From an uncultured bacterium (GTDB taxonomy: Bacteria; JAGRBM01; JAHCIT01): DNA of 64,000 bases. The notes under the pieces are model-generated. The model made no database searches and was not told the origin of the DNA. It worked only from the letters and a program-made list of their open reading frames with translations. Of this stretch, positions 6,012 to 40,002 are shown piece by piece. Both the position numbers and the translations under genes were made by a program. Numbering within the stretch: position 1 is the stretch's first letter; each line of letters starts with the position of its first letter. The stretch lies in assembly GCA_964565925.1 (NCBI GenBank), contig CAZMGV010000008.1:2664-66663 (forward strand), written 5' to 3'.

Positions 6012-8145
6012 TCACGGAGTTGATCTGGTCGCGCAGCGTTTCCATCGATAGCGGCTTCTGCAGGAACCCGCTGGCGCCCCTGGAGAGAACCGTTTCGAGC
6101 GCGTCCGGATCGGCGTAGCCGCTCATCAGGATCACCGGAAGCTGCGGACGCTGGGATTTGAGCCGCGAGAGCACCTGCCAGCCGTCCATCTCCGGCATGT
6201 TGAGGTCCAGCAGGACGCATGACACGTCCTTGCCGTCCCGGGACAGGAGTCCCAGCACGTCTCCGCCGCCCGTGAGCCCTTCCACGCTGAACCCGAGCGT
6301 CTCCGTCATCGCCACGATCGTGTCCCGGATATCCTTCTCGTCGTCCACGACGAGTATCCGGCCCGCCGCCGCCCGGGGCTGCACCGCCGGCGCCGGCTTG
6401 GGTTCCGGCTTCACGCTGGCCACCGGGAAGTAGAGCCGCATCAGCGTGCCCCTGCCCGGCTGGCTCTCCACCTGGATCGCGCCCCGGTGCGACTGGACGA
6501 TTCCGAGCAGCGCCGAGAGACCCAGCCCCCGGCCCCGCGGCTTGGTGCTGAAAAACGGATCGAAAATGTGGGCGAGCACGCTCTCGTCCATCCCGCAGCC
6601 GTTGTCGCGGATGTCGAGACGCACATAACGGCCGGCGGCGAGCGCCTTGCCGTTGACCGACACGACCGGCTCCCGGTCGGTCACCTCGGCCGCAGCGGAA
6701 CTGATCGTGATGGTGCCGGGATTGTCGCCGATGGCTTCGACGGCGTTCTGGATCAGGTTGACAAGAATCTGGTTGATCTGCCCGGGGTCGCCCTGAACAG
6801 GCGTCACGTCCGGCGAAAGCTCCAGGCGCAGATCGACCGCCGCGGGGATCGACACCCGCATCACCTTGGAAAGCTCCTCGGCGGCGGCGTTCAGCGACAC
6901 CGGCGACTGGCTGCGGCGCCCCTTGCCCGTCGAGTGCAGCAGCTGCTTTACCAGATCCGCCGCCCGGCGGGCGGCGGCCTTGATGCTGACGATATTCTCC
7001 AGTGTCTCCGAGCCGGGTTCGAGCGAGCGTTCGGCCAGCGTCGCGTGCCCCAGTATCGGCGTCAGCAGGTTGTTGAAGTCGTGCGCGATGCCGCCGGCGA
7101 GCATGCCCAGGCTCTCCATCCGGCGCGCATGGGCGAGCTGGCGCTCCAGCTCCGAGCGGCGCTTCTCTTCCTTGCGCTGCTCGGTGACGTCCGTGGCCGA
7201 GCTGGTCAGCGAGACGACCCTCCCTTCCCTGATGACGGGCCAGATCCGCGTTTCAAAACTCCGGGCCGTACCGTCATGGTGGTGATACTCCCCGCAGTAG
7301 CTGCCGGGCTTACCAGTGGCGATCACGTGATCCATGCAGCCGCGCTGGGCGGCGTGGAACTCGGGCGCCGTCAGGTCGAACACGTTCACCCCCAGCACCT
7401 GATCCATCGTGAGTTCCGGGATTGTCCGGTTGCAGAACAGGATCTTGCCGTCCAGATCGAGCGACAGGACGTAGTCCGGCGAGCTTTCGGCCACCGACCG
7501 CCACTTGGATTCCGACTCCCGAAGTTCGATCTCCGCCATTTTGCGCGCCGTCACGTCCCGGGTCATGCCCAGCGCTCCTTCGAAATTCCCGTCCGCATCG
7601 AACAGCGGATCGGTCTGCATCTCGACCCAGACCTCCGTGCCATCGAGACGGCGGAACTTGAAGCTGTGTTCCTCGCTGATCCCCTGGCGGCGCCGGTCCA
7701 TGTTATTGCCGGCCCGCGCCTTCGCCTCGTCGTCCATGAAATCCCACATGGTGCTGACCAGCATCTGCCCCATGGTGACGCCGAGAATGTCGGCCATCCG
7801 GCTGTTGGCGTAGGTCGTACGCCCCTCCCGGTCGATCATCCAGACCCCTTCGCCGGTTGTGCGGATGATCCGGGCGTACTGGGCCTCGACCGAGCGAAGC
7901 GTCGTTTCCACGCTTTTCTTTTCGTCGATCAGCCGGCCGGCAACGGCGGCGAAAACCAGCAGAATCGCAAACAGGCCGAGCCGCATCCACAGCTCGGACC
8001 CGGCCGGATACAGCAGCATTTCCTGGAAACTGCCCTGCCCGAACAAAAGCGAATCCGCAGCCGCGTCGAGGACCCAGAACAGGGCCCACAAACCGACCGC
8101 AAGGCTCATCAGCCTCGGATAAATTAACCGGCGTGCGCGTTGCAC
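6001..8145 (-). CDS. hybrid sensor histidine kinase/response regulator with PAS domains
   Basis: 2 N-terminal TM helices, PAS repeats, HisKA (HDFNNLLTPI), HATPase_c (GCGMDE...GLGLS), C-terminal receiver domain (ILVVDDEKDIRD). Confidence 0.85.
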   Translation of the reverse strand: MQRARRLIYPRLMSLAVGLWALFWVLDAAADSLLFGQGSFQEMLLYPAGSELWMRLGLFAILLVFAAVAGRLIDEKKSVETTLRSVEAQYARIIRTTGEGVWMIDREGRTTYANSRMADILGVTMGQMLVSTMWDFMDDEAKARAGNNMDRRRQGISEEHSFKFRRLDGTEVWVEMQTDPLFDADGNFEGALGMTRDVTARKMAEIELRESESKWRSVAESSPDYVLSLDLDGKILFCNRTIPELTMDQVLGVNVFDLTAPEFHAAQRGCMDHVIATGKPGSYCGEYHHHDGTARSFETRIWPVIREGRVVSLTSSATDVTEQRKEEKRRSELERQLAHARRMESLGMLAGGIAHDFNNLLTPILGHATLAERSLEPGSETLENIVSIKAAARRAADLVKQLLHSTGKGRRSQSPVSLNAAAEELSKVMRVSIPAAVDLRLELSPDVTPVQGDPGQINQILVNLIQNAVEAIGDNPGTITISSAAAEVTDREPVVSVNGKALAAGRYVRLDIRDNGCGMDESVLAHIFDPFFSTKPRGRGLGLSALLGIVQSHRGAIQVESQPGRGTLMRLYFPVASVKPEPKPAPAVQPRAAAGRILVVDDEKDIRDTIVAMTETLGFSVEGLTGGGDVLGLLSRDGKDVSCVLLDLNMPEMDGWQVLSRLKSQRPQLPVILMSGYADPDALETVLSRGASGFLQKPLSMETLRDQINSVISG

Positions 8146-8290
8146 GATTTCCCCCGTCCCCGGGACCGCTCTGACGCGGACTCCTTCGGACCGAACCCCT
8201 TGAAACGATAAAGATATACTAAGACCAACGGGGCGCCGCCCGCAACGGGAAAATAACGGGGAACCGCACGGAATTTTTTAAAATCTGGAA

Positions 8291-9019
8291 TCAGCGGACC
8301 CGGCAGCGCTCGGCACCGATCACGTGCTTCAGATCCATAAGTGCTGTTTCAACCTCGACGTTGCGGACCACGTAGTCGAACTGGTCCACCGCCTGCATTT
8401 CGGTTTCGGCCGTCTTGAGACGCCGCTGGATCTGATCGCGGCTTTCGGTGCTGCGCAGACGCAGCCGGTGCTTGAGCTCGCTCAGCGACGGCGGCGAAAT
8501 GAACACCAGAATGGCTTCCTTCAGCGCCGCCCGGATCGACATGGCCCCCTGCAGATCCACCTCGATCAGGATGTCCTGCCCGCTCGAAAGCTGGTCCTGT
8601 ACCCACTGCTTGCCCGTGCCGTAGTAGTTCATCCCGTGAACGTAGGCGTATTCCAGGAATTCGTTACGCTTTACCATTTTCTGGAACTGGTCGCGGCTCA
8701 CGAAGTGGTAGTCGCGGCCGTTGCGCTCGCCCGGACGGCGGTCGCGGGTCGTATAGCTCACGCTCCAGCGCATCCGGGGGTCTTCGGCCAGCAGCCGCCG
8801 GATCAGCGTCGATTTGCCGGAACCCGACGGCCCAGCCACGACGACGACAATTCCCCGCCGGCCTTTGCCGGGGATTTTATGGCCGGGAACATTATGGCCC
8901 GGGATCTTTTGAGCAGGCGCCCTTTTCTGACCGGACGAATTCCCGCCGGCCGCCTTGCCTGCAGGTACCTTATGAGCGGGTTTCTTCCCTTTGCTATTCG
9001 AGGTTCTGGACTTGTTCAC
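8291..9019 (-). CDS. gmk: guanylate kinase (low-complexity N-terminal extension in the ORF; true start may be downstream non-ATG)
   Basis: GPSGSGKSTLIRRL P-loop and YTTR motif; overlaps yicC stop by 26 nt at the annotated ORF start. Confidence 0.85.
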   Translation of the reverse strand: MNKSRTSNSKGKKPAHKVPAGKAAGGNSSGQKRAPAQKIPGHNVPGHKIPGKGRRGIVVVVAGPSGSGKSTLIRRLLAEDPRMRWSVSYTTRDRRPGERNGRDYHFVSRDQFQKMVKRNEFLEYAYVHGMNYYGTGKQWVQDQLSSGQDILIEVDLQGAMSIRAALKEAILVFISPPSLSELKHRLRLRSTESRDQIQRRLKTAETEMQAVDQFDYVVRNVEVETALMDLKHVIGAERCRVR

Positions 9020-16573: not shown

Positions 16574-16610
16574 GCCTGCGCGCCTAGCAGTCTTCAGCAG
16601 TCTTTAACAG

Positions 16611-16650
16611 AGCGGCCGCTCCCCGGAAGGTGGGCGGCCGTTTTTTTTGT
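16611..16650 (+). terminator. rho-independent terminator
   Basis: GC stem cggccgc...gcggccg followed by TTTTTTTTG immediately after ORF 15656-16573. Confidence 0.7.
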
Positions 16651-16757
16651 TTGGGCCCGCCGGCCTGTGCCCAGTCTTGTTCCACGAAGCTTTAGCGAAG
16701 GGGAAAGCCGAAGGACGGAGGGGTAAGTCTCAACGGAGGAGGGTCAGGTAAATACTG

Positions 16758-17219
16758 TCATGGTATAGTTTTCGTGACGAAATATATCGCACAAACGATG
16801 CCTAAAAGCATCATACCGAATGCGCCTACTGCCGCACAGTAGCCGTGCCTAGCCCGCGACTCTATGAATTTCTTAACTTCGATCGCACGGGACGCATCAA
16901 TTTTTGCTAAGCGCGGGAATATGACGTAGCCACATAAAAATAAAGAAACCATCCATGAGAAACAGGGGATCCATACCCAATGTCCTGGAACTACTTGGCC
17001 GGGATCCTTACAATCACGATATAGCTTCAATAACCCGAGATAGACCGGCTGCATCCCTGCACTAATCGTAGCAATATGCTTCGCGGCATCCGTCAGGCTA
17101 CCGATGCTCCCCGAAATCAAATCCTCTCCCATTTTTTTATACGCCGGACTCATCTTTTCAAAACGCTCAAGCGCTTCTTGAACACTATCGGGCGCGCGTT
17201 CGCCATTGATCACAGCCAT
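16758..17219 (-). CDS. small two-TM membrane protein (island gene D)
   Basis: Two C-terminal hydrophobic helices (WVWIPCFSWMVSLFLCGYVIF; YCAAVGAFGMMLLGIVCAIYFV); 20-nt gap to upstream gene. Confidence 0.5.
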   Translation of the reverse strand: MAVINGERAPDSVQEALERFEKMSPAYKKMGEDLISGSIGSLTDAAKHIATISAGMQPVYLGLLKLYRDCKDPGQVVPGHWVWIPCFSWMVSLFLCGYVIFPRLAKIDASRAIEVKKFIESRARHGYCAAVGAFGMMLLGIVCAIYFVTKTIP

Positions 17220-17238
17220 CTCAGCGACCCCAAATCAC

Positions 17239-17451
17239 CTAAAATAGAAAGGTTACCTTGTTAGCTTTTCCACACTCTGAGCATATATCATACCGATTCT
17301 CAGCTGTCATAGGCGCGCGCACTTCCATTTTCATAATGGAATCCTTCTCCGCGGATAACATTGCTTCGACATCCTGGATCGAATACGTTTGGCTGTATAT
17401 GGAAGTATTTTCTTTCTTACAATTGAAACATGTATACTTTACCATTTTCAC
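17239..17451 (-). CDS. small zinc-ribbon protein (island gene C)
   Basis: CFNC...CSEC paired CxxC motifs in 70 aa; 31-nt gap to upstream ATPase gene. Confidence 0.5.
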   Translation of the reverse strand: MKMVKYTCFNCKKENTSIYSQTYSIQDVEAMLSAEKDSIMKMEVRAPMTAENRYDICSECGKANKVTFLF

Positions 17452-17481
17452 GAGACACCTCCCGGATATTCACAACTCATT

Positions 17482-19092
17482 TCATCCTGACAAATACTCA
17501 TAGACAGCTTCTCTAACCGAATTTTTTATCGCTCGGGATCTATGAGGCCCAACGTACTTTACTTTCTGAAGCTTCTCATCAGATGCTCTAAGCACTTGCT
17601 CTAGAGTAAGCAGATTAAGCTCCTTAAGTTTTACTTTTTGCCATTCCGTGACATCCAATAGCTCGATAGACTTAGAATATGCACTCTTAAGAATATCTGT
17701 AACATTAATGTCTGGATACAATTCTTTTTCAGGAGGCAAAGACTTGAATGATTCATGATTCATTCCGTATTCTGTCATAAGTTTAATTGACAGATTTTTT
17801 GCAAATTCAATCAATCTAATTCCTTTGATATCCATTACTTTCGACATCACGATTCCCAAATGCACCGCATAACGGGAGCCAATCTCCGCTCGTGTTGCCT
17901 TAATCCCAGTCGCATGCTCGCGAATGATCCCCGTATAAGATAAAAGTCGGAATGCGTGCCTGACGGCTTCAGGTGCATCACGGTGCAGCCAGATAAAGCA
18001 CGACGTTTTCTTATCGGATTTTAAGTACGCTTCATTTTTTTGATATAACTCGTTCAATACGTTGCCTTCGACAAAATTGCGGCCCCAATCTATTAAAGGT
18101 TTATGCCCAGTATAACTCTCAACTAACATGGAATGTTCGGACCATATGTCATCTCGGTAATACTCTCGGATAACCCGCCTCACATTATCTCCGTTTAGCT
18201 TCTTCGCTCTAAGAATCGTTTTAAAAAGTAGTCGTGGATTTCCATCAGAGGCATAAGCGAGTTCCGAAAAGTGCTCCCTATTTTCTTCAATTTGTTTAAT
18301 AAGCTGTAGGTCCCCCTGCTTTACTATCATCTCCTCCATATTCTTAATGTAATCTTCACTTAATACATCTCTATTAACATTTAAGAATGTAGCATCATGA
18401 GTAGGCTCAAATGTATCTCCGTAATTAGTGACTCCAGGGTATACGGCCGCATTACAAGTCATAAATGGACTTCGTAAATCTCTAAACAACGTAAAAAATT
18501 GTCTTTGTTGCTCTGGTTTTAAGATATGTGCGGCTTCATCAAAAAATACACAAAAGCGAGATATTCCAAAGCCGATACATATATCTTCAACAGCTTCTTT
18601 AAATTGATCTACACTCGGTAATTTCGCTATATCGACTTTTACATCTGGGTGTTCCCAAGATTGCTCATACGCTTGGACAATCTTTGCGATATCGACTTCG
18701 TCTTTGGAATATCTGATTGATGGCGATGGAGTGAGCGAAAACGCCGAACTATCCGTAAAACCATATCTTCTCATACTTCTAATTATTGATTGCCATAATT
18801 TCCCAAGCATCCAGTGCTGGAATTGCATCTGATCATTGGTCTGTATAAGTGTGCCCTTGACAAAACTAATATATATCGGGAGTACTTTGTTATTGGCGAA
18901 ATTGGCTGAAAGTTCTTGAATTGCAACTTTCAATAAAAATGATTTTCCAACGCCTCTACTGCCCACTACAATTGTCGGAGCTTTGGATTTCAGGGAGTCG
19001 ATGATCCGACGGTCTTGTTCAGATTCGACGAAATACTGAATTATATCTTCGTCTTTTATATCTTCCGTACGGAATATTAGTGGATCACTCAT
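17482..19092 (-). CDS. P-loop NTPase (AAA+/STAND-like) with C-terminal helix-hairpin-helix (RNAP alpha-CTD-like) domain (island gene B)
   Basis: Walker A VVGSRGVGKS, Walker B FCVFFDEAAH; C-terminus LTLEQVLRASDEKLQKVKYVGPHRSRAIKNSVREAV resembles alpha-CTD HhH; start at ATG 19092 with AAGGGA RBS (longer ORF to 19143 possible). Confidence 0.7.
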   Translation of the reverse strand: MSDPLIFRTEDIKDEDIIQYFVESEQDRRIIDSLKSKAPTIVVGSRGVGKSFLLKVAIQELSANFANNKVLPIYISFVKGTLIQTNDQMQFQHWMLGKLWQSIIRSMRRYGFTDSSAFSLTPSPSIRYSKDEVDIAKIVQAYEQSWEHPDVKVDIAKLPSVDQFKEAVEDICIGFGISRFCVFFDEAAHILKPEQQRQFFTLFRDLRSPFMTCNAAVYPGVTNYGDTFEPTHDATFLNVNRDVLSEDYIKNMEEMIVKQGDLQLIKQIEENREHFSELAYASDGNPRLLFKTILRAKKLNGDNVRRVIREYYRDDIWSEHSMLVESYTGHKPLIDWGRNFVEGNVLNELYQKNEAYLKSDKKTSCFIWLHRDAPEAVRHAFRLLSYTGIIREHATGIKATRAEIGSRYAVHLGIVMSKVMDIKGIRLIEFAKNLSIKLMTEYGMNHESFKSLPPEKELYPDINVTDILKSAYSKSIELLDVTEWQKVKLKELNLLTLEQVLRASDEKLQKVKYVGPHRSRAIKNSVREAVYEYLSG

Positions 19093-19096
19093 GGAA

Positions 19097-19837
19097 TTAT
19101 CCCTTACTATAATACTGTCTGAATATCGGAATACTCGAAACATTATCTTGGAATACCGGCTCTAGCAGTGCTTTATCTTCAGCATTTAAACCGGCCAGAT
19201 ACCTTGAAAATAACCCGATCTGGACGATAAAGAATACGCTATCTGCTAAGGTTAACCACTCTCGAAATACCGGTTCATTATATTCGATATCGGCCTTCAA
19301 AAAATCGGTTCGGGAGTAATTCCCGTGCACGTATTCTGAACAGGATCGATATACTTTTGCACAATGTTCTGAATAGATCGATGAATCTGTCTCTAATCCG
19401 GCGCAATATAACTTACAGTAAGAGGCGGAGAATACACCGTTGTCCTTGTTGGTCACTTCTGACCACTGCAAATCATATTTACCGGCTTTCCAGGCTCTAA
19501 AGTGATAATCATGCATCGAAAAATATATGACACCAATTGAGGCTTCCAAAAATTGGCGCAATTCAAATATTGCTTGTCGATATCCTCCAGTAGTCCCTTC
19601 ATATAGGGAGCGACTGAACCCCCAACAGCAATAGTTGAATAGTTCGACCTCCGGAGTTTCCTGAATAATATTTCGCCAAATCTCTAAATCGGCGCGCTTT
19701 GAATGGATTGCTGCCAGACGACCGGCGTGGCTAGATTGCAGCGCTAACGCCGAATTGCTTTGAACCTTCTGGATTAAGCGTGTGTATTCGCTTGTAAGCG
19801 CCGTCACCGCGATAGCTGGCTTTGAAATATCAGACAT
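19097..19837 (-). CDS. hypothetical protein (island gene A), Cys-rich, possible Rx6H (HEPN-like) motif
   Basis: 246 aa from ATG 19837 (TTG at 19849 also possible); coding-like periodicity; first gene of the island operon; RSCSEYVH motif. Confidence 0.5.
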   Translation of the reverse strand: MSDISKPAIAVTALTSEYTRLIQKVQSNSALALQSSHAGRLAAIHSKRADLEIWRNIIQETPEVELFNYCCWGFSRSLYEGTTGGYRQAIFELRQFLEASIGVIYFSMHDYHFRAWKAGKYDLQWSEVTNKDNGVFSASYCKLYCAGLETDSSIYSEHCAKVYRSCSEYVHGNYSRTDFLKADIEYNEPVFREWLTLADSVFFIVQIGLFSRYLAGLNAEDKALLEPVFQDNVSSIPIFRQYYSKG

Positions 19838-20099
19838 GTACGGTTCCAATCGTCTTTGATATCACAAAATATATACCAACTAGTAAAAGTGTTCAAAAAA
19901 ATAGTAGTAGGCGCCATCCTTATTCACAGGCTCACCACGAACGGTGCCGCTCTGAAAATGCACCTTCCGGTGCGGCTTTCCCCCGAAATTCCCGCCAGTT
20001 ACCAACTGTGACACTCCGTGACACACACGTCTGATAGGGTGCTTTGCAGGTAAGGGGGCATATGGGCCCCGCCATCACAAGTCTGCCGCTTCCATCCCT

Positions 20100-32710: not shown

Positions 32711-32924
32711 CAGGTAGCCGGAAGGTCCTCCCCGGGCCCCAATCACAGAACTTTCGTTGACGCCCGAAACGGGCTGTGTTATCGAACCGAAACCTTTGTG
32801 ATTTCACTTAGGTAAACGGCCTTGGGAGGCCGATACGGACAAGCGAGTCCTTATCGGATTTCCGGGCACGCACCAGATGGCTGGCTAGTGGCTGACAAGC
32901 GACCGGCAACCAGCCGATGGCTCA

Positions 32925-32974
32925 ACTGCGGATCAGCTTACACAACTTTCAAAAAGTATTGAAAGTTTCCGCAG
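32925..32974. promoter_or_regulatory. nested palindrome (candidate operator) upstream of Mla-like operon
   Basis: ctgcgga-N11-aactttcaa-aaagtat-tgaaagtt-tccgcag. Confidence 0.4.
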
Positions 32975-33019
32975 TCTGGTGCACTCTGTTCCAAGGTTTG
33001 AGGGAAGCAGGACACCGCC

Positions 33020-33793
33020 TTGATCGAGATCCGCAACGTCAGCAAACGGTTCGGCGAGCACAAGCTGCTCGACAACGTGAGCCTGACCGTGAATGCCGGC
33101 GAAACGGTCGTGCTGATCGGACCGTCGGGGCACGGGAAAAGCGTGCTGGTGAAGATCTGCGCGGGTCTGGTCGTCCCCGACGGAGGCGAAGTGTTCATCG
33201 ACGGCCAGTCGATCACCACGGCCCGCGGCCCCGCGCTGGACAATATCCGCCGCCGCATGGGCATGCTGTTCCAGAACTACGCCCTGTTCGACTCCATGAC
33301 CGTTTACGAGAATCTCGCCTTCCCGCTGCGCACCAACGACAACCTTTCCGAGGCCGAGCTGGACAAGCGGGTCATGCACAACCTGTCGCTGGTAAAACTC
33401 GCCCACGCGGCGCAGCTGAGGACCAGCGAACTGTCGGGCGGCATGAAGAAGCGCGTGGGGATCGCCCGCGCGTGGATCCGCAACCCGGAAGTGATCCTCT
33501 ACGACGAGCCCACGGCGGGCCTGGACCCGGTCACGGGCGAGCGGATCAACACGTTCCTCAAGGATTTCGCAAAACAGAGCCGCACGACGGCGCTGGTCGT
33601 GACGCAGGAAATGCTGTCGGCGTTTTCGGTCGCCGACCGCCTGGCGTTCGTCTACAACGGCAAGATCATGCAGTGCGATACGCCGCAGAAGATGCGCGAA
33701 TCGAAGATCCCCGAAGTGGCCCAGTTCATCAACGGCCTGCGCGAAGGCCCGCTGACGAACGCCGGAGTCGTGAAGCGCCGGGAGTCCATGTGA
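33020..33793 (+). CDS. ABC transporter ATP-binding protein, MlaF-like (copy 1)
   Basis: Walker A GPSGHGKS, signature LSGGMKKRV, Walker B ILYDEP; TTG start with RBS agggaag. Confidence 0.85.
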   Translation: MIEIRNVSKRFGEHKLLDNVSLTVNAGETVVLIGPSGHGKSVLVKICAGLVVPDGGEVFIDGQSITTARGPALDNIRRRMGMLFQNYALFDSMTVYENLAFPLRTNDNLSEAELDKRVMHNLSLVKLAHAAQLRTSELSGGMKKRVGIARAWIRNPEVILYDEPTAGLDPVTGERINTFLKDFAKQSRTTALVVTQEMLSAFSVADRLAFVYNGKIMQCDTPQKMRESKIPEVAQFINGLREGPLTNAGVVKRRESM

Positions 33794-34533
33794 GCATCGT
33801 TTTCAAGAACCTCTGGAAGAGCTTCGGGCCGAAAACGGTTCTCAAGGGTATCAACCTGGAGATCCACGAAGGCGAGACGCTGTTCATTATCGGCGGCTCG
33901 GGCACCGGCAAGTCGGTCACGATCAAGCACCTGATCGGCTTGCTCCGCAAGGACAAGGGCGAAATCTGGGTCGACGGCAAGGAAGTGAGCGACTACACCG
34001 AAGAGCAGTTCATGGACGTCCGCAAGAAGTGCGCGATGGTGTTCCAGAACCCGGCGCTGCTGGACTCGCTCACGATCGGCGAGAACGTCGCCTTCGCGCT
34101 GCGCCGCCATACGACGCTCTCCGACAAGGAGATCCGCCGCAAGGTGGCCCAGACCCTCGCGCTCGTGAACATGGAAGGCTACGAGCACAAGATGCCGTCG
34201 GAGATCTCCGGCGGCATGCAGAAGCGCGTGTCGCTGGCCCGCTCGATCATTTTCGAACCCAAATACGTGCTCTACGACGAGCCGACCACCGGCGCGGACC
34301 CCGTAACCGCCAACGCCATCAACGACCTGATCAAGGCCATGGCGCGGGAGTTCAAGGTCACGTCCATCGTCGTCTCGCACGACATGGAGTCGGTCCGCCA
34401 GGTGGCCAACCGGGTCGCCATGCTGTACCAGGGGCAGTTCATCTGCGACGAATCGCCCGAGAACCTCTGGAAGAGCAAGAATCCTTACGTCCAGCAGTTT
34501 ATAAACGGAAGCCCTGACGGGCCCATGGAGTGA
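33790..34533 (+). CDS. ABC transporter ATP-binding protein, MlaF-like (copy 2)
   Basis: Walker A GGSGTGKS, signature ISGGMQKRV, Walker B VLYDEP; GTG start overlapping upstream stop. Confidence 0.85.
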   Translation: MSIVFKNLWKSFGPKTVLKGINLEIHEGETLFIIGGSGTGKSVTIKHLIGLLRKDKGEIWVDGKEVSDYTEEQFMDVRKKCAMVFQNPALLDSLTIGENVAFALRRHTTLSDKEIRRKVAQTLALVNMEGYEHKMPSEISGGMQKRVSLARSIIFEPKYVLYDEPTTGADPVTANAINDLIKAMAREFKVTSIVVSHDMESVRQVANRVAMLYQGQFICDESPENLWKSKNPYVQQFINGSPDGPME

Positions 34534-35411
34534 GTGCAGGCAGCATGAGCGAAGCAGTCGCCGAATCCCGGAACCCCGGACTGATCCGGGGGTTATTCCG
34601 GGGCCCCTTCGAGGCCCTGGGCTCACTGATCTTTTTGATCGGCGTGGGTATCGAGGAGTTCGGCCGGCTGTGCCTGTTCCTCAGGGAAACCGTCGTCCGC
34701 CTGATGAAGCCGCCCTACTACCCGGACGTCATCATGTACCAGATGTTCCAGGTGGGCGTGAAGTCGCTCCCGATCGCCGTCATGGCGGGTTCATTCGTGG
34801 GCGGCATCTTCGCCATCCAGATCAACGACCAGCTCCAGGATTTCGGCGCGCAGGCGTTCCTGGGAGGCATCGCCGTCTCCGTCACCGTGCGCGAAGTGGG
34901 CCCGCTGATGATCGCGCTGCTTATCGCAGGCCGCATCGGAGCGTTCACGGCCGCCGAACTGGGCACCATGAACGTCACCGAGCAGATCGACGCCATCCGG
35001 TGCCTGGGCACCGACCCGATCAAGTATCTGGTCGTTCCGCGCTTCCTGGCCTGTATCGTGATGTCGTTCGTGCTCACGGTCGTCGGCATCGTGATCGGTA
35101 TTCTCGGTTCCGCCCTCGTCGCCTGGACGATTGCGGGCGTGCATCCGCTCTTCTATTTCAGCCGCGTGCTCGACATGGTCCACGTCTTCGACTTCGTGAA
35201 CGGCTTATGGAAGAGCTTCTTCTTCGGCATCCTGATCGCCACCGTCTGCTGCTATTACGGCTTCAACACCCGGGGCGGCGCCGAGGACGTGGGCCGGAAC
35301 GTGAACAAGACCGTCGTCATCACCGGCATCAGCCTGCTCGCCACCGACTACTTCCTCGCCGTCATCTCCGGCTGGATCTACCTGGTCATCACCAAGATAG
35401 GCGAGATCTGA
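34530..35411 (+). CDS. ABC transporter permease, MlaE-like (copy 1)
   Basis: Polytopic membrane protein with MlaE family pattern (…EQIDAIRCLGTDPIKYLVVPRF…). Confidence 0.75.
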   Translation: MSAGSMSEAVAESRNPGLIRGLFRGPFEALGSLIFLIGVGIEEFGRLCLFLRETVVRLMKPPYYPDVIMYQMFQVGVKSLPIAVMAGSFVGGIFAIQINDQLQDFGAQAFLGGIAVSVTVREVGPLMIALLIAGRIGAFTAAELGTMNVTEQIDAIRCLGTDPIKYLVVPRFLACIVMSFVLTVVGIVIGILGSALVAWTIAGVHPLFYFSRVLDMVHVFDFVNGLWKSFFFGILIATVCCYYGFNTRGGAEDVGRNVNKTVVITGISLLATDYFLAVISGWIYLVITKIGEI

Positions 35412-35413
35412 GC

Positions 35414-36190
35414 ATGAACCTCGGTATCTTCACGCCGTTCGCGGTCTTCTTCGAGACGGTCAGGGACGTCCTGCGGCTGTACGCGGAGACGGTCTTCTAC
35501 ACGTTCTATCCGCCCTACCGTCTGCGCCCGATCCTCGACCAGCTGTACTGGATCGGGGTCAATTCGACCGCGATCGTGCTGTCGACCATCGCCTTCGTCG
35601 GCATGATCTCCATCGTGGAACTGGGCTTCCAGATGGACACCGTCCTGCATACGACCGAATTCGTGCCCGGTTTCGCCACCGTGCTGATCCTGCGCGAGTT
35701 CGCCAGCGTCATCCCCGCCGCCATGATGGCCGGCAAGGTGGGCGCGGGTATTACGGCCGAAATCGGCACCATGCAGCTTACCGAACAGATCGACGCGCTG
35801 CGGCTGATCTCGATCAACCCGATCAAGCAGATCGTGGTGCCCCGGTTTGTGGCCACCGTACTCAGCCTGATGATGCTTTCCTGCATCGCCGCCATGGTGG
35901 CCATCTTCACCGGAATGATCGTCTGCCAGGTGAGCATCCATATCGACTGGCTGCTGTTCATCAACAACGCCCGCAACTTCGTCAAGCCCCTGGATCTGGG
36001 CGTCAACGTCTTCAAGGCGTTCCTGTTCGGGCAGATTATCCCGATCGTGGCGTCGTATTACGGGTTCAGGACCACCGGCGGCGCCGAGGGGGTAGGCATT
36101 GCCTGCACCAAATCGGTCGTTTATTCGGGGCTCCTGATCGTCATATTGGACTTCTTCATCACCTGGGTGGTGTCGGCCTATATTTTGTAG
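35414..36190 (+). CDS. ABC transporter permease, MlaE-like (copy 2)
   Basis: Paralogous to copy 1 (…EQIDALRLISINPIKQIVVPRF…); ATG at 35414. Confidence 0.75.
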   Translation: MNLGIFTPFAVFFETVRDVLRLYAETVFYTFYPPYRLRPILDQLYWIGVNSTAIVLSTIAFVGMISIVELGFQMDTVLHTTEFVPGFATVLILREFASVIPAAMMAGKVGAGITAEIGTMQLTEQIDALRLISINPIKQIVVPRFVATVLSLMMLSCIAAMVAIFTGMIVCQVSIHIDWLLFINNARNFVKPLDLGVNVFKAFLFGQIIPIVASYYGFRTTGGAEGVGIACTKSVVYSGLLIVILDFFITWVVSAYIL

Positions 36191-36247
36191 AACAGTAATG
36201 AAAACCGTTGTATACAGAGAATTCGCAAGGGAAAGAGGCAGTAGGAA

Positions 36248-37468
36248 ATGAACAGAGAATTTAAAGTCGGCCTTCTCGTGGTCGGAGCCGTTGCGGCGGC
36301 TATCGGCTTCATCGCTGTACTGAAAGGCGTGGGAATCGGCCCCCGGTCATCCTACCGCCTGAAGGTCGGTTACAACTTCGCGGGCGGTCTCACCGTCGGC
36401 TCCCCCGTCCGTGTTTCGGGCGTCAAGGTGGGCAAGGTGCGCGCCGTGGATTTCGTGGGCGAAGACCCCTCGATCCCCTACCACGTGGTGGTGACCATCG
36501 ACATCGACGACAAGGCCCGTCCGTCGGTGCGCAAGAACTCCAAGTTCCTGATCAACATGGCCGGCATCATCGGCGAGCGCTACCTCGAAGTGACGCCCGG
36601 CTCCAAGGACGCCGAGTCCTGGGAACCCAACACGCTCGTCCCCGGCGTCGATCCGCCGCGCCTCGACCAGCTGATCTCGCAGGGCTACGCCGTCATGGGC
36701 GAAGTGCTCGACATCATCGAGAAGAACCGTCCGCGTCTTGAGCGCATGATCGCCGCCATCGATGCGTTCCTGGGCAACTTCGACGAAGAACAGATGAAGG
36801 ACGTGGGCCAGCTGATCAGCAACCTGTCCAGCCTCGTGAAGGCGCTGAACCAGGACGTGCCCGGCATGATGAAGGACCTCAAGCCGGTGCTGCACGCCGC
36901 TCCGGGCATGATCAACGATCTCCGCCCGGTGCTGAAAGACGCCGGACCGCTGATGCGCAACGCCAACGCCGTCATGATGGACCTCAAGCCGATCCTCGGC
37001 GACGCCCGTCCGATGGTCGTCTCGGCCCGCGAAGCGCTCGAGAAGCTGATGAAGATCATGCATGACCTCGAGCACTACAATAAGGCGAACGACACGAACC
37101 TCTCGTCGCTCATCAAGCAGGTTATCCGTATCGTCCAGAACATGGACGGACTGGTGGCCGGCGGTAACACGATGGTGAACAACCTCGCCTTCGTGGACGA
37201 ACAGTGGATCCGCTACTTCCTGCAGGAAGAAGGCCTGAAGGTGTACGCGAGCCTGGGCTCGCCGAACCCGCGCTACTTCGTGCCCGCGCCGCCGCCGCCG
37301 AACATCCGGCGCGCCCCGCCGCCGCCGTCGCAGCCCCTTCCGGAAGGAACAACACCGCAGGCAGCCCCGGCAGCAACCCCGGCTCCAGCACCGGTCGTAC
37401 CCAAGCCGACCTCTCCGGATCAGGAGCCGCCGCCTCCGCCGGCTCCGCCGCAGAAGATCCGCCAGTAA
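36248..37468 (+). CDS. MlaD/MCE-domain substrate-binding protein with long helical and Pro-rich C-terminal tail
   Basis: N-terminal TM anchor, MCE domain, extended coiled region, PPPP-rich end. Confidence 0.75.
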   Translation: MNREFKVGLLVVGAVAAAIGFIAVLKGVGIGPRSSYRLKVGYNFAGGLTVGSPVRVSGVKVGKVRAVDFVGEDPSIPYHVVVTIDIDDKARPSVRKNSKFLINMAGIIGERYLEVTPGSKDAESWEPNTLVPGVDPPRLDQLISQGYAVMGEVLDIIEKNRPRLERMIAAIDAFLGNFDEEQMKDVGQLISNLSSLVKALNQDVPGMMKDLKPVLHAAPGMINDLRPVLKDAGPLMRNANAVMMDLKPILGDARPMVVSAREALEKLMKIMHDLEHYNKANDTNLSSLIKQVIRIVQNMDGLVAGGNTMVNNLAFVDEQWIRYFLQEEGLKVYASLGSPNPRYFVPAPPPPNIRRAPPPPSQPLPEGTTPQAAPAATPAPAPVVPKPTSPDQEPPPPPAPPQKIRQ

Positions 37469-37511: not shown

Positions 37512-37546
37512 GGGCGGCACCCCACCGGGGGCCGCCCTTTCTGTTT
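37512..37546 (+). terminator. rho-independent terminator after Mla-like operon
   Basis: gggcggc-loop-gccgccc followed by tttctgttt. Confidence 0.55.
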
Positions 37547-37596
37547 GCCCTGCCCCCTGACCAACCCCCGGCGGAGGTGTTAGGTTCATTACGGCC

Positions 37597-39291: not shown

Positions 39292-40002
39292 TTGTGTATT
39301 CCCCGGCTTTCACTCTTCATTATTCTGGCTTTTTTGACGGCGTCTCCGGCGTTCGCTCAAGATACACCCACACCGGCGACTGAGGAGAAGAACCCTCCGG
39401 AAGCCCCGAAAACTGAGCCCGCCTCTTCGTCGGCTCCCGCTCCAGTCCCGCAATCTACCCAGCCGCCCACCGACAGGACGTTCCGGCTTTTCAGGGAAAC
39501 CCCCTATAATTGGACATTGAGCTTCGGCGGCAGCGGATTCTCCACGAGCCCCAAGAAACCGAATCCAGATATAGACATGGGACAGTTCTTCATCGCGTTC
39601 GGACCGTCGACGAGATTCGCGGAAGCGGATGTCGAACTCGGAATCGGCGACGCGAGCCCAAACTATTCCGGCTTCGTCAGCCTCGGACTACGGGGCCGCC
39701 TCTATCCGATCAGCCGCCCCCAGCTCGGACAGTTCACGATCTCGCCGTACCTGGCGGGAGGCCTTTCGGCGGGCATGGAGCTAGGCGAAGTGGACGGCAC
39801 CGGCAAGCCCGAATCTGTCCTGTACGGCGATGTATGCATAGGCATTGAATCGGGGTTCAAGGCAGACGAATACCAGGGTGTGCTGTTTTTTGAAATCGGC
39901 GCCGCTGGCGTGAACGGCGGTGGCAACGACCTTCCTCCAAATCTCCGGGGAACCGACGCCGCCCGCATCGGGCGCGGCGGACTCAGGATCAGGTTACCCT
40001 GA
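39292..40002 (+). CDS. secreted hypothetical protein (possible small beta-barrel/outer-membrane protein)
   Basis: Signal peptide ending AFAQ; Gly/aromatic-rich alternating pattern. Confidence 0.45.
   Translation: MCIPRLSLFIILAFLTASPAFAQDTPTPATEEKNPPEAPKTEPASSSAPAPVPQSTQPPTDRTFRLFRETPYNWTLSFGGSGFSTSPKKPNPDIDMGQFFIAFGPSTRFAEADVELGIGDASPNYSGFVSLGLRGRLYPISRPQLGQFTISPYLAGGLSAGMELGEVDGTGKPESVLYGDVCIGIESGFKADEYQGVLFFEIGAAGVNGGGNDLPPNLRGTDAARIGRGGLRIRLP

Follow-up and report, generated by a model that had tools for sequence, protein, structure and literature searches.

A conserved Mla/MCE-type operon with two ATPase and two permease genes, predicted to encode an asymmetric ATP-binding cassette transporter

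The window analysed here is a 64,000-nucleotide stretch of DNA from an uncultured bacterium (GTDB lineage JAGRBM01; JAHCIT01), covering positions 2,664 to 66,663 of contig CAZMGV010000008.1 of the assembly GCA_964565925.1. It contains an operon of five genes for an Mla/MCE-type ATP-binding cassette (ABC) transporter; here, two genes for MlaF-like ATPases (F1 and F2) and two genes for MlaE-family permeases (E1 and E2) are followed by a single gene for an MCE/MlaD protein (D) (Table 1). Transporters of this kind move phospholipids across double-membraned envelopes, and both the coupling of ATP to lipid and the direction of transport are debated. To our knowledge, the ATPase of every solved member is a homodimer whose two ATP sites are equal. 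The features of the operon suggest, with a probability of about 70%, that the products of the five genes assemble into a single MlaFED-type complex of the inner membrane, in which the ATPase pair F1:F2 and the permease pair E1:E2 are both heterodimeric. Such an asymmetric heterodimer had been proposed in the initial annotation, made from the sequence alone, and the proposal is supported by the same gene order in 16 operons of two clades, by the formation of distinct clades by E1 and E2 in all bootstrap replicates, by purifying selection, and by deviations of the ATPase motifs that fall into one of the two ATP sites.

Table 1. Features of the transporter operon and their positions in the window
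Feature	Position	Strand	Description
Intergenic region 5' of F1	32747-33019	+	between divergent SPFH/Band-7 gene and F1
F1	33020-33793	+	TTG start, 257 amino acids; MlaF-like ATPase
F1 Walker A GPSGHGKS	33119-33142	+	intact
F1 switch-histidine position, Gln196, codon CAG	33605-33607	+	His to Gln
F2	33790-34533	+	GTG start, 247 amino acids; MlaF-like ATPase
F2 D-loop TGAD	34288-34299	+	family norm TG[LVI]D
F2 switch His197	34378-34380	+	canonical
E1	34530-35411	+	GTG start, 293 amino acids; MlaE-family permease
E2	35414-36190	+	ATG start, 258 amino acids; MlaE-family permease
D	36248-37468	+	ATG start, 406 amino acids; single MCE/MlaD protein
Weak terminator-like hairpin and T-rich run	37527-37549	+	consensus scan; 59 nucleotides past the D stop

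Gene content and family assignment

The presence of two complete MlaF-like and two MlaE-like genes beside a single MCE gene, described in the initial annotation, was confirmed by comparison with Pfam and NCBIfam. Both ATPases match the Pfam family ABC_tran (E = 1.6e-35 for F1 and 1.4e-32 for F2), and the top NCBIfam model for both is MlaF NF008809, with 191.9 bits for F1 and 187 bits for F2, its equivalog cut-off of 441 lying far above both scores. The best matches of the ATPases in the PDB are solved MlaF and MceG proteins, F1 matching MlaF with E = 5e-54. On these matches F1 and F2 are assigned to the MlaF family at the family level and are not equivalogs of E. coli MlaF.

Both permeases greatly exceed the cut-off of the Pfam family MlaE (PF02405; 22.5 bits), with 243.7 bits for E1 (E = 1.9e-72) and 196.8 bits for E2 (E = 4.5e-58). 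With the stricter NCBIfam model TIGR00056, which has a cut-off of 212.2 bits, E1 scores above this value (221.7 bits) and E2 below it (183 bits), E2 being the more divergent of the two MlaE-family permeases. Both align over their full length with solved MlaE (E = 4e-36 for E1 and 1.8e-28 for E2); the matches to YrbEA/B are weaker (E = 1e-22 to 2e-12), and the two proteins are not orthologues of these permeases. E1 and E2 contain the family-invariant motifs, and each also has its own clade-wide signature residues. The fifth protein, D, matches the Pfam family MlaD (PF02470) with E = 8e-17 and 61.7 bits (cut-off 25.1), and is a protein with an N-terminal membrane anchor and an MCE domain encoded beside the permeases. 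By the permease and MCE criteria applied to these sequences, the system is assigned to the MlaFED/MCE (type VIII) class of ABC transporters.

F1 and F2 are 41% identical to each other, and E1 and E2 are 34% identical. At these values, the members of each pair are old paralogues and not recent duplicates.

Conservation of gene order in relatives

The order F1-F2-E1-E2-D was found in 16 operons, six of them from the window clade (the window, L001 and L086-L089) and ten from Bdellovibrionia/Oligoflexia (L003-L011 and L084), the latter being referred to below as the Bdellovibrio clade. Among the contigs of relatives, L001/L002 and L086-L089 represent the window clade, and the Bdellovibrio side is represented by L003 and by L084, the complete genome of the cultured Bdellovibrio sp. 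22V. Close relatives of E2 are few and share 59-89% identity with it, after which identity drops to about 40-47% in proteins recorded under the names Bdellovibrionales, Bdellovibrionaceae or Bdellovibrio; among the 120 best database matches to E2, 105 are of the E2 type. Relatives of the window proteins are named in NCBI as "Bdellovibrionota bacterium", and also as "Chrysiogenetes" and "Deltaproteobacteria".

An E2 profile was also compared with one genome per GTDB species, and the best 80 loci were considered. The eight best (L004-L011), from Bdellovibrionales, Pseudobdellovibrionaceae, Bdellovibrionaceae and Oligoflexia, all have the five-gene order. The remaining 72, which belong to other phyla and to Bacteriovoracia (Peredibacter, Halobacteriovoraceae), have one permease gene each and a single ATPase gene that usually lies 3' of it, often followed by an MCE gene, the arrangement being mostly E-F or E-F-D. 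By BLAST score, the single ATPase of these loci is usually nearer to F2 than to F1 and the single permease usually nearer to E1 than to E2, the mean identities to the two permeases being near equal (35% and 34%). None of the best 80 loci contains just one F/E pair of the window subtypes. For annotation this means that the paired "ABC transporter ATP-binding protein" genes and the paired "MlaE family permease" genes of these genomes should be treated as distinct orthologous groups and not as redundant copies.

In several relatives from the two clades, the divergent gene next to F1 on its upstream side encodes a malate/lactate dehydrogenase (L001:2312-3262, L003:2512-3456 and L084:1481-2425), and in L003 and L084 succinyl-CoA ligase genes follow it; in the window, this place is occupied by the SPFH/Band-7 gene.

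Motif states of the two ATPases

In the window, the signature (LSGGM), Walker B (DE) and D-loop (AGLD) of F1 are intact, as is its Walker A, and the position of the switch histidine, which aligns with the His of solved MlaF, is occupied by Gln196. F2 has canonical Walker A (GGSGTGKS), Walker B (DE) and signature (ISGGM) motifs. One feature of the degenerate-site class of ABC heterodimers is present in this pair, F1 being without the switch histidine and F2 having Walker A, the Walker B Glu and His197. Across all 16 operons the switch histidine is missing from F1, and the Walker A, Walker B and switch histidine of F2 are canonical without exception (Table 2). As a background, 162 single-copy MlaF homologues were compared, of which 161 have the signature SGGM, 161 have Asp-Glu-Pro at Walker B, 159 have the switch histidine, and none has Ala in the D-loop.

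Table 2. Motif states of F1 and F2 in the two clades
Motif	F1, window clade	F1, Bdellovibrio clade	F2, window clade	F2, Bdellovibrio clade
Walker A	intact 6/6	intact 9/9 (truncated in L006)	canonical	canonical
Walker B	Asp-Glu 6/6	Asp-Asp 10/10	Asp-Glu	Asp-Glu
Switch histidine	Gln 6/6	Asn 10/10	His	His
Signature	SGG (16/16 in both clades)	SGG	SGG 5/6, SGS 1/6 (L001)	SYG/SFG 10/10
D-loop	AGLD	AGLD	TGAD 6/6	TGLD

In ABC structures, the switch histidine belongs to the Walker side of the ATP site, and the D-loop of the partner subunit contacts the same site. The two faces of each ATP site in the sandwich dimer come from different subunits, one contributing Walker A and B and its partner the signature, and in TM287/288 the degenerate site combines an Asp in place of the Walker B Glu with a deviant signature of the partner (PMC5216877). 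When the motif states are placed in this geometry, every deviation, in both clades, falls into one composite site, formed by the catalytic side of F1 and the signature and D-loop of F2. The other composite site, with the catalytic side of F2 and the signature and D-loop of F1, is canonical in all 16 operons. The F2 signature facing the degenerate site is deviant in L001 (SGS) and in all ten members of the Bdellovibrio clade; in the window itself F2 retains ISGGM, and the D-loop alone deviates. An F1 homodimer would have no intact site, nor would an F2 homodimer in the Bdellovibrio clade, so that the F1:F2 combination alone leaves one canonical site. The pattern corresponds to a design with one degenerate and one consensus site and, as far as motifs can indicate, supports an F1:F2 heterodimer.

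Age of the duplications and selection

Phylogenetic trees were constructed by the neighbour-joining method with 50 bootstrap replicates. The E1 orthologues of both clades formed one group in 50 of the 50 replicates, and so did the E2 orthologues. The duplication of the permease gene is therefore older than the split between the window clade and Bdellovibrionia/Oligoflexia, and, given the identical gene order, the same pre-split age is the parsimonious reading for the ATPase duplication. The grouping that bears on a duplication inside the lineage, with both copies in one clade, appeared in one of the 50 replicates for the ATPases and in 15 for the permeases.

In a comparison of the window with two relatives, the ratio of non-synonymous to synonymous substitution rates (dN/dS) ranged from 0.03 to 0.17 for the five genes, all of which are under purifying selection. 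All copies are open reading frames across the 16 operons at a sequence divergence of 40-60%; the Walker A of F1 is unreadable in the truncated copy of L006.

Other putatively asymmetric MlaF-type ATPases

A search with an F1 profile against 1.8 billion representative proteins revealed further MlaF-like ATPases with unequal or degenerate motifs. Fused tandem proteins (P0135-P0137 and P0322-P0325) occur in other metagenomes, P0322-P0325 being full-length with 546-581 amino acids; partial fused forms were also detected in a separate search. The first domain of the fused forms is canonical; the second has the signature SAG, SSG, SNG or SEG (SAG, SSG or SNG in P0322-P0325), often together with a TGQD D-loop. 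Judged by these motifs, the tandem proteins are covalently linked asymmetric MlaF pairs. The one fused gene with an available context, that of P0135 (L085:8-1321), lies on a 3.6-kb contig with no MlaE gene on it.

About a dozen clusters of single-domain MlaF-like proteins have the PTAGLD D-loop resembling that of F1 and have lost the switch histidine and/or the catalytic Glu. The degenerate single-domain proteins are P0218, P0169, P0182, P0331, P0334-P0336, P0347, P0372, P0375, P0393, P0418, P0448, P0453, P0466 and P0469; in this set Asn, Ser, Pro or Thr stands in place of the switch histidine and/or Asp or Ser in place of the Walker B Glu, most members having PTAGLD. The two with a readable context, P0218 (L090:6001-6747) and P0169 (L091:6001-6753), are orphans with no adjoining MlaE gene. 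Taken together, the fused and the single-domain degenerate forms indicate that asymmetric MlaF-type ATPases may extend beyond the operon type described here.

A different deviation was observed in L014, a metagenome-assembled genome of Leptospiraceae, whose single MlaF (approximately 7729-8454) has the signature LSVGM together with canonical Walker B and switch histidine. In a homodimer, this signature would alter both ATP sites.

The MlaD protein

In the AlphaFold2 monomer model of D, residues 3-25 form a membrane helix and residues 35-132 an MCE domain; residues 139-334 are helical, and the last 72 residues (335-406), 39% of which are proline, make up a disordered tail. The mean predicted local distance difference test score (pLDDT) of the model is 64.8, with values of 80-95 for the MCE beta-barrel and the membrane helix. 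Foldseek matched the model to MlaD and Mce1 chains with a probability of 1.00, and D matched solved MlaD with E = 1.6e-7; the second-best NCBIfam match of D is Mtu_fam_mce, over residues 10-267. The best PDB match is chain I of 13hr, a 312-amino-acid 'Mce/MlaD domain-containing protein' present in eight chains, which aligned with D through the helical region to residue 256 (E = 1.3e-8).

Besides the MCE domain, D and its relatives have in common VDPPRLDQLISQGY and FLQxEGI+A, the second of these motifs being C-terminal, D itself carrying the conserved motif FLQEEGLKVYA. The helical region of D holds an insertion at approximately 205-262 that is specific to the window clade and consists of proline-punctuated repeats with the motifs DLKPVL, DLRPVL and DLKPIL. 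MlaD proteins of the window clade have 317-406 amino acids, compared with 258 in the Bdellovibrio clade, and the difference corresponds to the repeat block and the variable proline-rich tail.

The initial annotation had described the helical and proline-rich tail of D as unusually long and had reported no MlaC or MlaB homologue in the operon. The helices and the proline-rich tail are indeed present; the length is not unusual, since 85% of MlaD homologues are long (374 amino acids on average), many with disordered ends (PMC10665443). The absence of MlaB and MlaC was borne out, Pfam scans having detected no member of the MlaA, MlaB (STAS) or MlaC families among the 58 predicted genes of the window. 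According to the same survey, these three proteins are largely confined to Proteobacteria (PMC10665443), so that neither the long D nor the missing MlaB and MlaC is unusual outside that group. A long MlaD without MlaB and MlaC fits the MlaEFD core of the bridge type that has been proposed.

The gene immediately after that of MlaD is conserved in the Bdellovibrio clade (L003:7527-8141, L084:7580-8368 and equivalents in L006-L011). Its product, of approximately 200-260 amino acids, has a signal peptide and numerous conserved glycines and ends in YYF or YFF. Such C-termini are typical of outer-membrane beta-barrels. The protein has no Pfam match, no homologue of it is detectable in the window, and the window clade lacks it. 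It may correspond to the beta-barrel that is fused to MlaD in Veillonella, encoded here by a gene of its own.

Proposed complex and alternative arrangements

In the proposed complex, E1 and E2 would together form the transmembrane lipid pocket, F1 and F2 the nucleotide-binding dimer with two non-equivalent ATP sites, and the single MlaD protein a ring, presumably hexameric, atop the permeases. The consensus site, composed of the F2 Walker motifs and switch histidine and the F1 signature and D-loop, would hydrolyse ATP and drive the cycle. The degenerate site, composed of the F1 Walker motifs with Gln and the F2 signature with the altered D-loop, probably binds ATP and hydrolyses it slowly or not at all, and could serve as a regulator or a stable hinge, in line with other ABC heterodimers that have a degenerate site. 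Lipid, the presumed substrate, would pass between the E1E2 pocket and the MlaD pore, its direction being equally a matter of presumption; as MlaC is absent, transfer past the ring probably proceeds via the helical extension of MlaD and not via a soluble shuttle. The more general proposal is that the Bdellovibrionota and the window lineage have an obligately asymmetric F1F2E1E2D6 transporter, with only one ATP site turning over and the other serving as a permanently ATP-bound hinge or regulator, that it is perhaps the only Mla-type system of the phylum, and that loss of symmetry in MlaF-type ATPases is perhaps recurrent. We consider the odds of this broader picture to be even.

Several observations weigh against the heterodimeric complex. 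The asymmetry of the window clade is mild, F1 differing by the change of His to Gln alone and F2 by that of Leu to Ala in the D-loop; with F2 otherwise canonical, an F2 homodimer would be catalytically plausible there, and the case for a heterodimer in this clade depends in part on orthology with the Bdellovibrio clade. The distinctness of the two copies, firm for the permeases, is weakly supported for the ATPases, monophyly across the two clades appearing in 29 of 50 replicates for F1 and in 35 of 50 for F2 in a simple neighbour-joining tree. In two members of the Bdellovibrio clade (L009 and L084), F1 lies about 1.2 kb from F2, with two small inserted genes called in L084. The orphan degenerate ATPases resembling F1 indicate that proteins of this type need not be encoded with a partner. 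The helical region of D, through which lipid would pass, is modelled at low confidence, with pLDDT below 50 for this region and the tail.

Some of these points would suit an arrangement in which an E1:E2 heterodimer works on an F2 homodimer, in the manner of YrbEA/YrbEB on a MceG dimer in mycobacterial Mce systems, F1 being an auxiliary or regulatory protein or serving another transporter: F2 of the window clade has all catalytic motifs, F1 can be separated from F2, and ATPases like F1 exist as orphans. We regard this arrangement as unlikely, since an F2 homodimer of the Bdellovibrio clade would carry SYG or SFG in both sites, in 10 of 10 operons, compared with SGG in 161 of 162 ordinary MlaF proteins. 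In addition, the canonical signature of F1 in all 16 operons and its Walker A, intact in every readable copy (6/6 and 9/9), are expected if F1 completes a site with F2 and needless for a mere regulator, and in the window the operon begins with F1, whose end overlaps F2. Two separate transporters had been named as an alternative in the initial annotation as well. Such homodimeric transporters, for example F1 with one permease and F2 with the other, co-expressed and sharing one MlaD ring, would agree with solved Gram-negative Mla complexes, in which a homodimeric MlaE2F2 is the sole arrangement. They appear slightly less probable still, as the genes are ordered F1-F2-E1-E2 and not F-E-F-E in 16 of 16 operons, and no locus among the best 80 has a single F/E pair of these subtypes. 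Moreover, an F1 homodimer would be without the switch histidine at both sites, and in the Bdellovibrio clade also without the catalytic Glu, and an F2 homodimer of that clade would have two deviant signatures.

It is very improbable that one copy of each pair is a decaying duplicate, either a pseudogene or a redundant paralogue without a role of its own. F1 is the fastest-evolving ATPase (dN 0.127, compared with 0.043 for F2, the slowest) and has lost one catalytic residue, as might be expected of such a copy. The lost F1 residues, however, were replaced uniformly within each clade, and E1 and E2 each form a fully supported clade. The initial annotation had itself pointed to a recent pseudogene as grounds for abandoning the heterodimer; no copy in the 16 operons is one, and a recent duplication or pseudogene was rejected on the paralogue identities of 34-41%, the intact frames retained at high divergence, and the low dN/dS of every gene. 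The heterodimeric F1:F2 and E1:E2 complex is thus preferred over all three arrangements.

Operon layout and flanking DNA

The genes of the operon are closely packed. F1 ends with ATGTGA, which contains the GTG start of F2, and F2 ends with GAGTGA, where the GTG start of E1 overlaps the stop codon; both junctions are 4-nucleotide GTGA overlaps, as had been noted in the initial annotation. An ATG overlap was also reported there; the ATG of E2, however, lies past the TGA stop of E1 with a gap of 2 nucleotides, the two genes being adjacent without overlap. The two overlaps and the short gap fit co-translation of the proteins in a fixed ratio. An alternative in-frame ATG of E1 at 34545 would give a protein of 288 amino acids, the same length as called in relatives. 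D is separated from E2 by a spacer of 57 nucleotides and has its own ribosome-binding site, AAGAGG, and GGAAGCAGGA lies 5' of the TTG start of F1.

The promoter of the operon presumably lies in the intergenic region 5' of F1, as judged from the gene map; a consensus promoter scan detected no sigma-70-like site. The hairpin downstream of D may mark the end of the operon. It is a weak candidate, the consensus scan having found six terminator-like sites in comparison with 4.4 expected by chance.

The operon resides in ordinary chromosomal DNA of about 63% G+C. Its upstream neighbours are argG, a gene for a HEAT-repeat protein, a small gene without assigned function and the divergent SPFH/Band-7 gene, whose product has a Band_7 Pfam match. 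Downstream are genes for a PHP-domain protein and a protein of the metallo-beta-lactamase fold, an open reading frame (ORF) for a secreted protein, an enoyl-CoA hydratase gene and one for a hybrid histidine kinase. Scans of the window for Rfam families and tRNAs gave no matches.

The secreted product of the downstream ORF (39292-40002; 236 amino acids), which has a signal peptide and a proline/threonine-rich linker, was considered as an outer-membrane partner of the transporter and rejected. It has no Pfam match, its hhalign probability against the post-MlaD protein of the Bdellovibrio clade is 0.6%, and the syntenic locus L087 does not have it, the genes for the metallo-beta-lactamase-fold protein and the enoyl-CoA hydratase being direct neighbours there; these results place it outside the Mla system. 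The third-position GC content of this ORF is 0.68, below that of its neighbours.

A low-GC island at 16600-20050 (0.36-0.50 compared with a background of about 0.63) contains three ORFs on the minus strand (16758-17219, 17482-19143 and 19097-19849). The second encodes a protein of 553 amino acids that begins with an ORC/CDC6-like AAA domain (PF24389, E = 2.9e-13); its PADLOC matches, to PDC-S01 and mad8, are weak (E of about 5e-4). The other two have no matches. The island has the look of a cassette gained by horizontal transfer, possibly a defence system.

Comparison with known systems

The MlaFEDB complexes of E. coli, A. baumannii and P. aeruginosa (PDB 6xbd, 7d06, 6z5u and 7ch8) have the same three core parts as the window system and are its best matches among solved structures. 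The presumed role is also the same, namely ATP-driven movement of phospholipids between the inner membrane and the MCE ring. MlaFEDB, however, is encoded with one MlaF and one MlaE gene, whose products act as homodimers with two identical ATP sites, whereas the window operon has two of each. Its further components, the STAS protein MlaB, the periplasmic MlaC and the outer-membrane MlaA, are all missing from the 64 kb of the window, and the MlaD of E. coli is short, with 183 amino acids compared with 406. With no MlaB or MlaC in the window, duplicated F and E genes and a long MlaD, the operon is not the proteobacterial six-component Mla pathway (MlaA-F).

The mycobacterial Mce1 and Mce4 systems (PDB 8fed) belong to the same type VIII class, and their MCE proteins also have long helical extensions. 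The permease of Mce1, which sets a precedent in this class for a heterodimeric pair, consists of the paralogous MlaE-family proteins YrbE1A and YrbE1B, and its ATPase MceG is a homodimer (PMC9882608). MceG is encoded elsewhere in the genome and has a C-terminal extension of about 120 amino acids (PMC9882608), unlike F1 and F2, which have no such extension. The mycobacterial ring is a heterohexamer encoded by six genes, while the window operon has one MCE gene and its asymmetry extends to the ATPase. The actinobacterial Mce operon, yrbEA-yrbEB-mceA-F with mceG in trans, is therefore a different arrangement from that of the window, which has one MCE gene and two short ATPases.

The three-component MlaEFD system of Veillonella parvula and most non-proteobacterial diderms likewise is without MlaA, MlaB and MlaC and has an elongated helical MlaD, often with a disordered C-terminus (PMC10665443). 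For the systems with a long MlaD, a trans-envelope bridge has been proposed rather than a shuttle (PMC10665443), as is proposed here. These systems have single MlaE and MlaF genes, and duplicated or heterodimeric forms are not mentioned in that study (PMC10665443). The MlaD of V. parvula ends in an outer-membrane beta-barrel, the MlaD of the window ends in the proline-rich tail, and in the Bdellovibrio clade a separate protein is encoded after MlaD.

Among ABC transporters of other families, systems with two ATPases and two permeases are common. No description of a heterodimeric MlaF or of a Bdellovibrio Mla operon was found in PMC10665443 or in the full-text literature searched, which leaves out most subscription journals. 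The proposed design with one degenerate site is so far undescribed for MCE transporters, and constitutes a lineage-wide asymmetry that is accessible to experiment, since the operon is present in a cultured Bdellovibrio, which makes genetics and purification feasible. A natural version with two ATPases and two permeases breaks the two-fold symmetry of Mla/MCE transporters, and makes it possible to ask whether one hydrolysis event per cycle is sufficient, which permease half contacts which ATPase, and how a two-fold motor operates on a six-fold MCE ring. If the more general proposal is correct, a single hydrolytic site is enough for type VIII lipid transporters to run, and a culturable organism would offer a naturally asymmetric complex in which to study the mismatch between the symmetry of the ATPase/permease dimer and that of the six-fold ring.

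The design of the ATPase pair has its counterparts outside the type VIII class. In CFTR and MRP1, with the signatures LSHGH and LSVGQ, the first Gly of the signature is replaced, as it is in the SYG and SFG signatures of F2 in the Bdellovibrio clade. In TM287/288, TmrAB, BmrCD, TAP1/2, CFTR and the ABCC proteins, one nucleotide-binding domain has lost catalytic residues, with Asp for the Walker B Glu and a replaced switch histidine, and the signature of its partner is deviant, which leaves one site active and the other inactive (PMC5216877); F1 and F2 of the Bdellovibrio clade show the same combination. These exporters, however, are of type IV: their transmembrane and nucleotide-binding domains are fused, their membrane folds are unrelated, and they lack an MCE ring. 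The likeness is limited to the design of the ATPases, which arose independently.

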